Shown: positions 1,740 through 20,649 of the stretch, piece by piece
Layout of the letters: every line of letters begins with the position of its first letter
How positions within the stretch are numbered: the stretch's first letter is position 1
Assembly: GCF_050920415.1 (NCBI RefSeq)
Contig: NZ_CP169309.1
Strand: one strand, 5' to 3'
Length of the DNA: 64,000 nucleotides
Source: Escherichia coli
GTDB taxonomy: Bacteria; Pseudomonadota; Gammaproteobacteria; Enterobacterales; Enterobacteriaceae
The notes under the pieces: generated by a model
What the model saw: the letters and a program-made list of their open reading frames with translations, nothing else
Database searches by the model: none
What the model was told of the DNA's origin: nothing
Translations under genes and position numbers: made by a program

Positions 1740-4700
1740 TTACTGCGCCTGCACGCGCAACTCTGCTGCGCTACGACTACGGTGACCCAGCAGTGCTTTT
1801 ACATCACTGGACTTCGGTTTAACCAGCGCAAATTTCGTGGCGAAGGTTGACCAGTTAGCCAGAATCTCTTCACCACGCTGGGAACCGGTATGCTGAACAT
1901 GCTCGGTGATAAGACCACGCAGATGCTCTTCATGGATCGCCAGGGAGTCAACGCTTAAGACCTCGACCAGTTCCGGGTTAACGCGTTTGCGGAAATCGCC
2001 GCTTTCATCGAGAACGTAAGCGAAGCCGCCGGTCATGCCCGCGCCGAAGTTAACGCCGGTTTTACCCAGAATACAGACAATACCGCCCGTCATATATTCA
2101 CAGCCGTTGTCGCCAATGCCTTCTACCACGGTGATAGCACCGGAATTACGCACGCCGAAACGTTCACCCGCGCGGCCTGCGGCATACAGACGACCACCGG
2201 TCGCGCCATACAGGCAGGTATTGCCGATAATGCTTGCTTCATGGCTGCGGAAGGCTGAGCCAACCGGAGGACGAATGGCGATTAAGCCGCCCGCCATGCC
2301 TTTACCGACATAGTCGTTGGCATCACCGGTCAGGTACAGTTCCACGCCGCCCGCGTTCCACACACCGAAGCTCTGGCCTGCGGTGCCGTTGAAGTACGCT
2401 TTAATCGGATCGGCTGCCAGCCCCTGATCGCCGTGCGTCTGGGCGATATAGCCCGAAAGCGATGCACCCACGGAACGGTCGGTGTTGCGAATATCGAACC
2501 AGAAGGTTTTGCTCTGACGCTCATCGACAAACGGTTTTGCCTGTTGCAGCAACTGCGCGTTTAGCAGGCCATTATCAAACGGCGGGTTGTTTTCGGTACA
2601 GTAGAGCGCCTTACCTGGATGCGGCTCGGCAGTCTCCAGCAGCTTCGACAGCGCCAGTTTCTGCTGTTTGGCGGTGAAACCGTCCAGCTCTTTGAGCAGG
2701 TCGGTACGGCCAATCAGATCCACCAGGCGCGTTACGCCCAGTTGCGCCATCAGCTCGCGGGTTTCACGGGCGATAAATTCAAAGTAGTTGGTCACTTTGA
2801 ACGGTAAGCCGTGATAGTGGTTCTTACGCAGTTTGTCATCCTGAGTTGCTACACCGGTGGCGCAGTTGTTCAGGTGGCAGATTCGCAGGTATTTACAGCC
2901 GAGCGCCACCATCGGGCCAGTGCCGAAGCCGAAGCTTTCTGCGCCGAGAATCGCCGCTTTGATGATATCGACACCTGTTTTCAGGCCGCCATCGACCTGC
3001 AAACGGATCTTATGACGCAAGCCGTTGGCAACCAGCGCTTGTTGTGTTTCAACAAGCCCCAGTTCCCACGGGCAGCCTGCGTATTTCACCGATGAAAGCG
3101 GACTTGCGCCAGTGCCGCCGTCATAGCCTGCGATGGTGATTAAATCGGCATAAGCTTTCGCTACACCTGTGGCGATGGTACCAACGCCCGGTTCGGACAC
3201 CAGCTTCACGGAGATCATCGCTTTCGGGTTGACCTGCTTGAGGTCGAAAATGAGCTGCGCTAAGTCCTCGATAGAGTAGATATCGTGGTGCGGCGGCGGG
3301 GAGATCAGCGTCACTCCGGGCACCGAATAGCGCAGTTTGGCGATGTAAGGAGTGACTTTGTCGCCCGGCAACTGACCGCCTTCGCCCGGCTTCGCGCCCT
3401 GGGCGACTTTAATCTGAATGACGTCAGCATTGACCAGGTACGCCGGAGTAACGCCGAAGCGACCAGAAGCCACCTGCTTGATGCGCGACACTTTGTTAGT
3501 GCCGTAGCGCGCCGGATCTTCACCCCCTTCACCGGAGTTCGAGTTACCGCCGATGCTGTTCATCGCTTCCGCCAGCGCCTCGTGGGCTTCCGGGCTTAAC
3601 GCGCCGATAGACATCGCAGCAGTATCGAAGCGTTTAAACAGTTCGCTTGCCGGTTCAACATCAGCAATGTTGACCGCGTTTTCACCCGGTGTAATTGCCA
3701 GCAGATCGCGCAGCGTGGTTGCCGGACGTTCATTAACCAGCTTCGCGTATTCCTGATAGTCGCTATACTCGCCGCTCTGTACCGCCTGTTGCAGCGTGCG
3801 CACCACGTCCGGGTTGTAGGCGTGGTATTCGCCACCGTGCACATATTTCAATAGGCCGCCCTGGCTGATGGGCTTGCGCGCCAGCCAGGCACGTTTCGAC
3901 AGATTCAGCAGATCCTGCTGGAAGTCTTCAAAGCTTGCCCCACCAATGCGGCTGACCGCCCCCTGGAAGCACAGGCCCACTACATCATCGTGCAGACCGA
4001 CCGCTTCGAACAGTTTCGAGCAGCGGTAAGACGCGATGGTGGAGATGCCCATTTTGGACATGATTTTGTACAAGCCTTTGTTGATGCCGTTACGGTAGTT
4101 GAGCATCACGGTACGATAATCTTTGGCAATCGCGTGGGTGTCTACCAGGCGGCCCAGCGTTTCATAGGCCAGGTACGGATAAATAGCCGTCGCGCCGAAG
4201 CCCAGCAACACGGCGAAGTGGTGCGGGTCGCGGGCGCTGGCGGTTTCGACGATGATGTTGGCATCGCAACGCAGGCTTTGATCGACCAGACGAGTCTGGA
4301 TCGCGCCAACCGCCATTGGGGCCGGAACCGGCAGGCGATCTTTAGCGATATTCCGGTCGGAGAGCACCAGCAGCACGGTGCCGCTACGTACCATTTTTTC
4401 GGCTTTGTCGCACAGCTCTTTGACCGTCGATTCGAGCGTGGTTTTAGTGACGTCAAAGGTGATATCCAGTGTATCTGCGCGGTAGTGCTCCTCTTTCATC
4501 GTCGTGAGCTGTTTGAAATCGGAGTAGAGCAGAATCGGCGATTTAAAACTTAAACGGTGCGCCTGGCCCTCTGCTTCACAGAAGACGTTCATTTCACGCC
4601 CGATGCTGGTGGCGAGCGACATAACATGCGCTTCACGCAGTGGGTCGATTGGCGGGTTGGTGACCTGGGCAAATTGCTGGCGGAAGTAATCGTAAATAAT

Positions 4701-11119: not shown

Positions 11120-11844
11120 GTAAAAGCCGCTTAACGGTGTTTAGTTTCGTTCGCCGTTTTCTTCTACGGTTAATGGTTGTCCTCGCCGTTTTCTGGGGCG
11201 GGGGCATCGCGTTGTTTAGCGTTGCGCCTGTTCCTTTCTCAGCGGTAATGGCCGAGCGACAAGTCAGCGCCTGGCTGCATGGCAATTTTCGTTACGTGGC
11301 ACATTCTGACTGGGTCAGTATGGATCAAATCTCGCCGTGGATGGGACTGGCGGTGATTGCCGCAGAAGATCAGAAGTTTCCTGAGCACTGGGGCTTTGAT
11401 GTCGCTTCCATTGAGCAAGCCCTGGCGCACAACGAGCGCAATGAAAACCGTATTCGCGGCGCATCAACGATTTCTCAGCAAACAGCCAAAAATCTCTTTT
11501 TATGGGATGGACGTAGCTGGGTACGAAAAGGGTTGGAAGCCGGATTAACGCTGGGGATAGAAACAGTCTGGAGCAAAAAGCGTATCCTGACGGTTTACCT
11601 GAATATCGCCGAATTTGGCGACGGTGTGTTTGGCGTCGAAGCTGCGGCACAACGTTATTTCCACAAACCCGCGAGCAAACTTACCCGGTCGGAAGCTGCG
11701 TTACTGGCTGCCGTATTACCTAATCCACTGCGTTTCAAAGTCTCCGCGCCATCGGGCTATGTGCGTAGCCGTCAGGCGTGGATTTTACGGCAGATGTATC
11801 AGTTAGGCGGTGAGTCGTTTATGCAACAACACCAGCTGAATTAA
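11116..11844 (+). CDS. mtgA: Monofunctional biosynthetic peptidoglycan transglycosylase
   Basis: 242-aa ORF with N-terminal TM helix and GT51 transglycosylase motifs; start overlaps the elbB stop (ATGA). Confidence 0.94.
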
Positions 11845-12473
11845 GCTTCGCGCGAAGTGAGGGCCAGCGTTTTGCTCTCACGTGGTTGCAGATCTTTCTG
11901 TAGGGCAATAGCCAGTGCCGGCTGGGCGATAAACCGTTTCCATAACCGCTCTTGCTTTCGCTGACAACACCACTTTGACCAGGTCGCCAGTGGAATCAAC
12001 GTGCTTTCACCAATGTTGTCGCAGACGACGGGGATAACCTCTGACTCACTGATGCGGTGACAGAGGATATTCTGCGGCTTCAACGACATCGTCACGATAT
12101 GGTTATCCTGCAAATAACGTTTCAGCTGTTTCAGTAACTGGCGCAGCTGTGCAACGTCTTCTTCGTAACGGCATTGTTCTGCAAATTCGGTCAGCGTAAC
12201 GGAGGGCTTACCGTCGAAATCGGCAATCACATCGTAGACATAACCCGTTCCGCAATCCGTCTCCACGGTACCGTGATAGCGCGGTATTCCACTCCAGTCT
12301 TTTAACCGGCGACCAAGATGCGCGTAATACTTTAACTCACGGCGGATCTCTTTATCACCACCATCACCACGGTGGTAGACAATCTTGATACAGCGTTGGG
12401 CATCTTCCGGATGCGCATAGCATTTCCGATGTCTTCCGGTGCCCAGGGGATTTTGTTCAGATAAGCGAATCAT
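11841..12473 (-). CDS. yrbL: PhoP-regulated protein YrbL
   Basis: ATG at 12473 ([24 protein letters not shown]...) gives 210 aa; its stop codon overlaps the mtgA stop (convergent 4-bp overlap). Confidence 0.9.
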
Positions 12474-12523
12474 ACCATCTCCTGGAAATATTTTCTGACG
12501 ATCTCCAGTATGGTCGAATAACT

Positions 12524-12540
12524 TAAACAAAACCTAAACA
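12524..12540 (-). promoter_or_regulatory. PhoP box (direct repeat TGTTTA-N5-TGTTTA) upstream of yrbL
   Basis: Minus strand reads TGTTTAGGTTTTGTTTA about 50 bp upstream of the yrbL start; matches the PhoP box consensus. Confidence 0.6.
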
Positions 12541-12685
12541 ATGCCTCTTAAGGTTTTCTTAAGGTTCTTCTGAAAGTGAAAAGCGCACAAAATGTACAAT
12601 TTCCGTCATTAATAACGATTTCAGTACGCGCTTTTTTTATTGTCGGGGGGAGCTTGAAGGGATTTGTATGTCAAAGTGATGAAAA

Positions 12686-12958
12686 TTAATCTTCATCAAA
12701 ACCAGAGTTAAAGAGGGCGATAACGGCGGCCAGTGCTTCCTCTTCCTGTGGACCGGTCGCTTCGACTTCAATCTGCCGTCCTTTGGCAGAATCCAGCATC
12801 AGCAGCGCAATAACGCTGTTGGCTTCAGCTTCAGTGCCTTCATCGTTACGTAACAGCACTTCAGCGTCAAAACCCTGCATTAATTCAAACAGCTTCATTG
12901 CAGGCCGGGCATGCATGCCCAGCTTGTTTGTGATTTCAACAGTTTGCTTGACGGTCAT
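12686..12958 (-). CDS. npr: Nitrogen-PTS phosphocarrier protein NPr
   Basis: 90-aa ORF, HPr-like ([20 protein letters not shown]...); overlaps the rapZ stop. Confidence 0.95.
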
Positions 12959-13809
12959 GGTTTACGTTTTTCCAGCGTACGATGGCGTGACTGGACGTTT
13001 TTACCGCGTGAACGGAAGTAGTCTGCCAACTGCTCTGCAATATACACCGAACGGTGCTTCCCGCCAGTACAACCAATGGCGACCGTCAGGTAGCTACGGT
13101 TGTTGGTTTCCAGCATAGGTAACCATAGCTCAAGATAGCTTCGCGTCTGGTAAATAAAATTGTGTACTTCTGTGTGGCGGTCGAGGAACGCGGCGACAGG
13201 CTTATCAAGACCTGTCATCGGACGCAGTTTTGGATCCCAGTGCGGGTTCGGCAAGAAGCGCACGTCAAAGACGTAATCTGCATCGATAGGGATACCGTGT
13301 TTGAAGCCGAAAGACTCAAAGACCATGGTCAGTTCGCGTTCACGTTTACCCAGTAAACGGGTACGCAACATTTCTGCCAGCTCGTGAACGGACATTTCTG
13401 AGGTATCGACAATCAGATCCGCTCGCGAACGCAGTGGTTCCAGTAGATCGCTTTCTTTGTCGATAGCACTTTCCAGCGACAGGTTTTTGCTGGAAAGCGG
13501 ATGCAGGCGGCGCGTGTCACTGTAACGACGAATTAAGGTATTACGGTCGGCATCCAGGAACAGGAGTTGCGGTGAGAAAGCGTCAGGTAGGTTACTCATC
13601 GCCTGTTCGAATATTTCTGGTGACTCCGGCATATTACGAACATCAATGCTGACGGCGGCAGAAATCTCGCGATCGGCCAGAGTTCGAGCCAGATCGGGTA
13701 ACAACACTACGGGGAGGTTATCCACGCAGTAAAAACCCATATCTTCCAGAGCACGAAGGGCGACAGATTTACCTGAACCTGAACGTCCGCTGACGATCAT
13801 CAGTACCAT
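12955..13809 (-). CDS. rapZ: RNase adaptor protein RapZ (YhbJ)
   Basis: 284-aa ORF with P-loop GRSGSGKS; recognised as RapZ. Confidence 0.95.
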
Positions 13810-19671: not shown

Positions 19672-20649
19672 TTATTCAACGAGTATTGGCGATAACCAGT
19701 ACAACATCGCCAGCCATACGATAAATCCGCCAGTTAATAATACCCCTACACCACGGCCCGGTTGCTGGGAGCGCCGCCAGCACAGCAACGCAAAAATAAT
19801 GCTCACCAGCAACATCACGCTGTAGTCACGACTGTACGCCAGTGGATCAATCTCTCCAGGCGTTATCAGCGCGGGTAAACCCAACACGATGACAATATTA
19901 AAAATGTTTGCGCCAATGATATTCCCGACAGCAATGTCGTTTTCACCTTTGCGAACCCCCGCGATTGCGGTTGCCAGTTCTGGCAGACTGGTTCCGATAG
20001 CGATTGCCGTCAGACCCATCGTCAACTCGCTGATGGCAAAGTAATTCGCCAGCACCGTGGCGTTATCAACCACCATCCGCGTGGCCACTGGCATGATGAT
20101 CAGCGCAATGCCGAGCCATAAAAACGCGACGGGCAATCCGCCTTCACGCGGCAGCTCTGCAAGCTGCTCTCTGGTCAGGCTGTCAGTCCCCTGACGTTCA
20201 GCCAGACGTGCAAGTTTAACAATGAACAGCAGCCATAGCACAGCCAGAAAGAGGAGAAAGATACCATCGCTGCGACTAAGTTGTCCGTCATAGAGTACGG
20301 AACCGGCCACCACACTGACCAACAACATTAAGGGTAATTCGCGGCGCAGAACATCGGAATGGACGGTAAAAGGACGTACCAGCGCAGCCAGACCGAGGAT
20401 CAGCAAAATATTGATAATGTTTGATCCGAGGGCTACACCAACGGCTAAATCGCGTTGTTCGTGCAGTGATGCGGCAAGCGAAACGATGATTTCTGGTAAC
20501 GATGTGCCAATACTGACCACCGTCATGCCGATGATCAGTGGCGGTATGCCAAAGGATCGGCAAAGAATGGACGCGGCAAATACCAGGCGGTCGGCACTGT
20601 AAACGACCAAAAGTAAACCAACAATTAACAGTGCCGTAGCTAAAAGCAT
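19672..20649 (-). CDS. yrbG: Ca2+/cation antiporter-family inner membrane protein YrbG
   Basis: 325-aa polytopic membrane ORF with duplicated alpha-repeat motifs (GTSLPE). Confidence 0.93.
   Translation of the reverse strand: MLLATALLIVGLLLVVYSADRLVFAASILCRSFGIPPLIIGMTVVSIGTSLPEIIVSLAASLHEQRDLAVGVALGSNIINILLILGLAALVRPFTVHSDVLRRELPLMLLVSVVAGSVLYDGQLSRSDGIFLLFLAVLWLLFIVKLARLAERQGTDSLTREQLAELPREGGLPVAFLWLGIALIIMPVATRMVVDNATVLANYFAISELTMGLTAIAIGTSLPELATAIAGVRKGENDIAVGNIIGANIFNIVIVLGLPALITPGEIDPLAYSRDYSVMLLVSIIFALLCWRRSQQPGRGVGVLLTGGFIVWLAMLYWLSPILVE

Follow-up and report, generated by a model that had tools for sequence, protein, structure and literature searches.

A PhoP box and an adjoining predicted PmrA/BasR box in the yrbL promoter of Escherichia coli

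The yrbL promoter in the Escherichia coli DNA analysed here is, with high confidence, a PhoP-activated class II promoter of the kind known as architecture I that also receives a negative input from PmrA/BasR, a reading in which protein binding and the signs of both inputs are taken from the literature. It lies within a 212-bp spacer at 12474-12685 of the window, by which we mean the entire 64,000-nucleotide stretch under study, and both open reading frames and annotation place ptsN-rapZ-npr, the spacer and yrbL in this order along the minus strand. The regulated gene yrbL, supported as an open reading frame and by annotation, encodes 210 aa (11841..12473, minus strand, with the A of its ATG at 12473), and npr, also named ptsO (12686..12958, minus strand, with the final base of its stop codon at 12686), is the last gene of the ptsN-rapZ-npr unit. 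The initial annotation had placed the spacer downstream of the npr-rapZ-ptsN unit, and its limits are indeed exactly the start of yrbL and the stop of npr. On the other side, mtgA is carried by the plus strand and is convergent with yrbL; the two coding sequences share 4 bp at their stop codons (11841-11844), and the yrbL-mtgA pair has been listed among the 'excludons' of E. coli (PMC12288877). The PhoP box of yrbL is already known and well characterised, a textbook case within the PhoP regulon. The product of yrbL is named 'PhoP regulatory network protein YrbL' in the NCBI (RefSeq) annotation, and YrbL homologues carry the precomputed Pfam family PF10707 (YrbL-PhoP_reg). What the present analysis provides is a map of the promoter in window coordinates, comprising the PhoP box, an inverted PmrA/BasR box, the -10 hexamer, the leader and a further conserved block.

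The PhoP box, TGTTTA-GGTTT-TGTTTA (TGTTTAGGTTTTGTTTA), is found on the minus strand at 12524..12540 (read 12540->12524), in direct orientation to yrbL and overlapping the -35 position. It had initially been described as a minus-strand direct repeat about 50 bp upstream of yrbL that matches the PhoP box consensus, and on closer inspection it is separated from the ATG by 50 nt and matches the hexanucleotide direct repeat (T/G)GTTTA, including the 5-nt spacing, exactly. The site is the sole exact match to (T/G)GTTTA-N5-(T/G)GTTTA on both strands of the 64 kb, where 0.03 matches are expected. For a motif scan, a position-weight matrix (PWM) was built from the 37 footprinted Salmonella 19-mer boxes in Table 1 of Zwir et al. 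2012 (PMC3335776), from which yrbL was excluded, and was run over both strands of the window, 127,964 positions in all. The yrbL box scored 22.4 bits and ranked first of the 127,964, followed by a site of 16.1 bits at 20613-20631 within a coding sequence. Its score is higher than that of every site used to train the matrix (maximum 18.8) and also higher than the best score obtained from 30 shuffled windows (maximum 19.1).

Downstream of the box by 11 nt, the minus strand carries the -10 hexamer CATACT (12507..12512, read 12512->12507), the same hexamer as in the S1-mapped Salmonella promoter. A -35-like hexamer, TAGGTT at 12536->12531, agrees with the consensus at two of six positions and is followed by an 18-nt spacer to the -10. 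A simple promoter scan of 12300-12800 found no consensus sigma-70 promoter in the spacer, so that the promoter should depend on an activator. In Salmonella, where the yrbL promoter has been S1-mapped and footprint-analysed, the box TCGTTTAGGTTTTGTTTAA is in direct orientation, CATACT lies 11 nt past it, the -35 is TAGGTT with an 18-nt spacer, the leader is 32 nt long and the promoter was classed as "architecture I"; because that box overlaps the -35, a class II promoter is predicted. Comparison with this published footprint analysis, proposed as a check at the outset, bears out the assignment in the window, since box orientation, the 11-nt distance and the CATACT hexamer all equal the values tabulated for Salmonella yrbL. 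The window promoter thus has the features of architecture I, namely a direct box, 11-12 nt to the -10 and a poor -35 overlapped by the box. As in the other promoters of this class (mgtA, phoP, slyB, pmrD), a single direct PhoP box replaces the -35 about one helical turn upstream of the -10; unlike in those promoters, the distance from box to -10 in yrbL is 11 nt and not 12 nt, and within the class yrbL and pmrD also have a PmrA site. Transcription of yrbL probably starts near 12505-12500; the start reported for Salmonella is unusual in lying just 2 nt past the -10 hexamer. The 5' leader (12474..12506, minus strand) contains the Shine-Dalgarno sequence AGGAG at 12484->12480 and shows 0.82 identity across Escherichia and Citrobacter.

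The nearest known systems are the yrbL promoters of E. coli K-12, Shigella flexneri and Salmonella Typhimurium, which represent the same locus (Minagawa 2003; Zwir 2005, 2012; Lin 2018). The initial annotation had treated regulation of yrbL by Mg2+ and PhoPQ as known, and dependence on PhoP has been published for all three organisms. In Salmonella, S1 mapping revealed a single PhoP-dependent start that is active at 10 uM Mg2+ and gives no signal in a phoP mutant. In Shigella flexneri, phosphorylated PhoP shifts a yrbL upstream fragment in EMSA that bears the identical 19-mer tTGTTTAggtttTGTTTAa, and deletion of phoPQ reduces yrbL to 0.02 of wild type, a drop of about 50-fold. When PhoP is placed under optogenetic control in E. 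coli, yrbL reporters respond, although less sensitively and with more noise than those of phoP, pmrD and slyB. The window shares its 19-mer with Shigella and its geometry with Salmonella (11 nt to CATACT, TAGGTT at -35), differing from Salmonella Typhimurium in the first half-site, which is CGTTTA there and TGTTTA here. In the upstream half of the spacer, the strain of the window has a less common allele. Its PhoP box, PmrA box and -10 are nevertheless identical to those of K-12 MG1655, and between the conserved upstream block and the ATG there are two substitutions, one in the spacer between box and -10 and the other at -3. Since the promoter elements are identical, published work on K-12 applies directly.

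The initial description of the promoter as a PhoP box held for every element it named, but it was incomplete in omitting both a PmrA/BasR box and the third conserved block described below. The PmrA/BasR box, CTTAAG-N5-CTTAAG (12547..12563, assigned to the plus strand), lies 6 bp upstream of the PhoP box and is inverted relative to yrbL. On the yrbL strand it reads CTTAAG-AAAAC-CTTAAG (12563->12547), with the repeat unit AACCTTAAGA present in two copies at an 11-bp period, and its centre is 23 bp from that of the PhoP box. It is the sole YTTAAK-N5-YTTAAK site in the window, where 0.1 are expected, and it fits the published pmra-box definition of two hexamers 5 nt apart, XTTAAY-N5-XTTAAY. Because CTTAAG is palindromic, the orientation of the box has to be read from the flanking bases. 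The plus strand reads TTAAGGTT-TTC-TTAAGGTT, so that the extended PmrA half-site of bona fide E. coli targets is present twice on that strand. In K-12, the sense strand is CTTAAGGTTGGCTTAATTTT at the eptA promoter, which is activated by PmrA/BasR, and CTTAAGGTTAAGTTAATATT at the arnB promoter. Given that TTAAGGTT belongs to the sense strand in eptA and arnB and to the plus strand in the window, the box must be inverted relative to yrbL. An activated promoter has the PmrA box in sense orientation and overlapping the -35; here the box is inverted and lies upstream of the PhoP box. We also considered the box as a -35 surrogate for an antisense promoter on the plus strand and rejected this, as no hexamer with A2 and T6 occurs 10-12 nt downstream. 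With an inverted box and no usable plus-strand -10, the site would be of the repressing kind rather than part of a PmrA-activated promoter.

Published observations on PmrA point the same way. For yrbL of Salmonella and E. coli, a spacing of about 24 bp between the PhoP and PmrA sites has been described, as part of a "bi-fan" motif that also occurs in pmrD, and PmrA is stated, with Zwir 2005 as the source, to repress the E. coli yrbL promoter. In iron-adapted populations of E. coli B with strongly raised basR, eptA and arn expression, yrbL ranks among the most strongly down-regulated genes, an association that is correlative. From the motifs in the window we predict a PmrA site next to the PhoP box, which would make yrbL a two-input promoter. 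The closest parallel is pmrD, likewise a PhoP-activated, PmrA-repressed 'bi-fan' gene with the same regulators and signs and a PmrA box close upstream of the PhoP box; unlike pmrD, where the boxes are about 38 bp apart, yrbL has them at about 24 bp, and its product is without known feedback on PmrA. With eptA (pmrC) and arnB (pbgP), the window shares the extended half-site TTAAGGTT and the 11-bp periodicity; their motif, however, reads along the sense strand shortly before the start, and the pmra-box is described as overlapping the -35 of pbgP and pmrCAB, whereas in the window it is inverted and upstream of the site of another activator.

Taken together with the literature, the most probable course of events is as follows. 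PhoQ would sense low Mg2+, antimicrobial peptides or acid pH and phosphorylate PhoP, and a dimer of phosphorylated PhoP would bind head to tail on TGTTTA-N5-TGTTTA, in place of the missing -35. PhoP would then recruit sigma-70 RNA polymerase to the weak -10 CATACT, with transcription expected to start about 32 nt before the yrbL ATG. Phosphorylated PmrA/BasR, activated by Fe3+/Al3+ or via PmrD, would lower yrbL expression from the inverted box, presumably through steric or architectural interference with PhoP or RNA polymerase, and the promoter would in this way integrate two envelope-stress two-component systems.

Conservation was followed in two alignments, the first containing the window and 11 Escherichia and Citrobacter promoters, and the second adding Salmonella, Siccibacter, Pluralibacter, Erwinia sp., Enterobacter and Cedecea, with the same npr-yrbL-mtgA synteny at its loci wherever neighbouring genes had been called. 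Across Escherichia and Citrobacter, identity to the window is 1.00 for the -10 hexamer, 0.96 for the PmrA box, 0.95 for the upstream block, and 0.91 and 0.89 for the two PhoP half-sites, and falls to 0.48-0.56 in the segments between blocks. CATACT is invariant in 12 of these 12 sequences and is also found in Salmonella, Siccibacter and Erwinia sp. The box and the -10 are kept across Escherichia, Citrobacter, Salmonella and Enterobacter, so the absence of the motif from orthologous promoters, which had been named beforehand as grounds for giving up the assignment, was not what we found. GTTTA-N6-GTTTA is retained in most Escherichia and in C. amalonaticus, with GTTGA as the first half in Escherichia MOD1. 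The first PhoP half-site, (C/T)GTTTA, is more stable than the second; other Citrobacter, Salmonella and Enterobacter keep the first half, and in place of the second they frequently have ATTTA or CGTTTA. The strict (T/G)GTTTA form is hence not universal, several genera having ATTTA in the second half-site.

For E. coli itself, 5,425 genomes were compared with a 48-nt query that spans the two boxes. The sequence is identical in 3,151 of them and differs at one or two positions in 841, while 1,432 genomes (about 26%) differ at three positions, with 93.8% identity in all seven of the seven matches sampled. The one aligned example of the three-difference class is APEC IMT5155, TGTTTAGATTTCGTTTA, with a B2-type box whose second half-site, CGTTTA, falls outside strict (T/G)GTTTA and which also has a change in the box spacer. 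CGTTTA would be the second half-site in about 26% of complete E. coli genomes. In E. coli 2009C-3133 (2786-3483), the second half-site is likewise CGTTTA, and yrbL would be expected to be uncoupled from PhoP. An IS1 insertion is another natural variant of the yrbL promoter. In E. coli ST131 strain 4993, one 11-bp unit of the PmrA box (AACCTTAAGAA, corresponding to 12553-12563 of the window) is deleted and a single half-site is left, which looks like the outcome of slippage between the two repeat units. Such natural promoter variants could serve as ready-made genetic tests of box function.

Three other explanations of the repeat and of yrbL expression have to be weighed against a PhoP-activated, PmrA-repressed promoter. 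That a short degenerate consensus was matched by chance, and that the repeat plays no regulatory role, seems to us close to negligible: the consensus does specify 12 positions only, and some match to KGTTTA-N5-KGTTTA turned up in 3 of 100 shuffled windows, but the box also has the top score in the window by an independent PWM, is correctly oriented 11 nt from an invariant -10, is kept across genera while its flanks diverge, and has published binding and PhoP dependence for the identical sequence. Very unlikely, though a little less so, is that the repeat mainly serves another regulator of the OmpR/PhoB family, for example PmrA/BasR acting on a degenerate TTTAGG-N5-TTTAAG or RstA, with PhoP acting only indirectly. 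A relaxed YTTARK-N5-YTTARK pattern does overlap the PhoP box, weak TTTAAT/TTTAAG sites are bound non-specifically by PmrA in vitro according to the literature, and PhoP controls further regulators. Against this, purified phosphorylated PhoP shifts the Shigella yrbL upstream fragment bearing the identical box, the Salmonella PhoP box classes, yrbL included, were derived from DNase footprinting, and a far better PmrA box is available 6 bp upstream.

The remaining explanation is that yrbL is expressed chiefly by read-through from ptsN-rapZ-npr and that the PhoP promoter is minor in this strain. The two genes npr and yrbL are co-oriented and 212 bp apart, and a simple terminator scan of 12300-12800 found no canonical intrinsic terminator after npr, so that read-through into the yrbL promoter region is possible. 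The sole candidate is a long imperfect hairpin on the minus strand, AAAAGCGCGTAC...GTAC...GCGCTTTT, followed by CACTTT (12579..12635), which could be a weak npr terminator in this allele only; it folds with -15.6 kcal/mol (z = -2.2) in the window and with -8.7 kcal/mol (z = -0.4) in K-12. However, yrbL falls about 50-fold upon phoPQ deletion in Shigella, Salmonella has one PhoP-dependent start that is silent in a phoP mutant, and relatives with strong npr terminators retain the same promoter blocks, and we regard dominant read-through as just as improbable as an indirect role for PhoP. A PhoP-activated promoter with a repressing PmrA/BasR input remains by far the better account.

Further upstream, the alignments contain a third conserved block of 19-21 bp on the minus strand, wTTGTACATTTyGTGCkCTTTT (12579..12599, read 12599->12579), a candidate for a third cis-regulatory input. 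Some 35 bp separate it from the PmrA box downstream; its position is roughly -75 to -95 from the probable start, and it has 0.95 identity in Escherichia and Citrobacter with about 0.5 on both flanks. Versions of the block can be recognised in Salmonella, Siccibacter, Pluralibacter and Enterobacter; the Pluralibacter version has GAAAA in place of the central ATTTT and keeps GTAC and GTGC. Several identities were considered and rejected. The block is present in a single copy per genome and is thus not a repeated element, and as a small open reading frame of 16 codons it would need a strain-specific ATG that is absent from K-12. Nor does it form the 3' arm of an npr terminator: C. amalonaticus, Siccibacter and Pluralibacter each have a canonical terminator further upstream, and conservation does not extend, even in K-12, to the 5' arm that would pair with it. 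An Rfam scan of 12300-13000 returned two sub-threshold eukaryotic families only, which we take as chance, and left the block unmatched. Compared by eye with the motifs of OmpR, Fis, RstA, MarA, CRP, sigma-54 and sigma-E, it bears, to our knowledge, no convincing resemblance to any of them. The block may tentatively be considered a binding site of a third regulator, a proposal we find somewhat doubtful, in which case yrbL would have a three-input promoter. If true, this could explain its atypical and noisy response to PhoP.

The spacer itself is nearly universal in E. coli, a 401-bp query across it having found matches in 5,425 of 5,426 complete genomes. The allele of the window is rare: it is 100% identical to that of strain 2013C-4282, most other E. 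coli genomes reach about 95%, and at least 99% identity over the 401 bp was reached in just 18 of the 5,425. Differences from K-12 are clustered in the npr-proximal half of the spacer (12600-12660), and the promoter-proximal half is nearly invariant. At the npr end, the npr stop codon lies at the centre of a 20-bp palindrome, GATGAAGATTAATCTTCATC (12678-12697), which has no mismatch in K-12 and one in the window. Conservation of its core GAAGATTAATCTTC is restricted to Escherichia, and the palindrome could fold into an 8-bp hairpin whose loop holds the stop codon.

As for the gene product, YrbL of the window shares 98% identity with the common E. coli allele, and the MG1655 annotation describes the protein as kinase-like. 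Three loci encode YrbL-family homologues of about 50% identity; they are located after dnaE, and homologues at this level of identity are non-syntenic and uninformative with regard to the promoter. Two of the three lie beside genes for Kdo/WaaP-type kinases, one of these also adjoining a glycosyltransferase gene, and the third is beside a gene of the Wzy_C family. The YrbL substitutions E42G and V149L arose in selections for resistance to antimicrobial peptides (PMC11842939, PMC9241736). Homologue neighbours, annotation and resistance mutations together hint at an envelope- or LPS-related kinase role for YrbL. Finally, a 420-bp contig labelled Tannerella forsythia ATCC 43037 carries a YrbL fragment 96% identical to the YrbL of the window, most likely reflecting E. 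coli contamination of that assembly.
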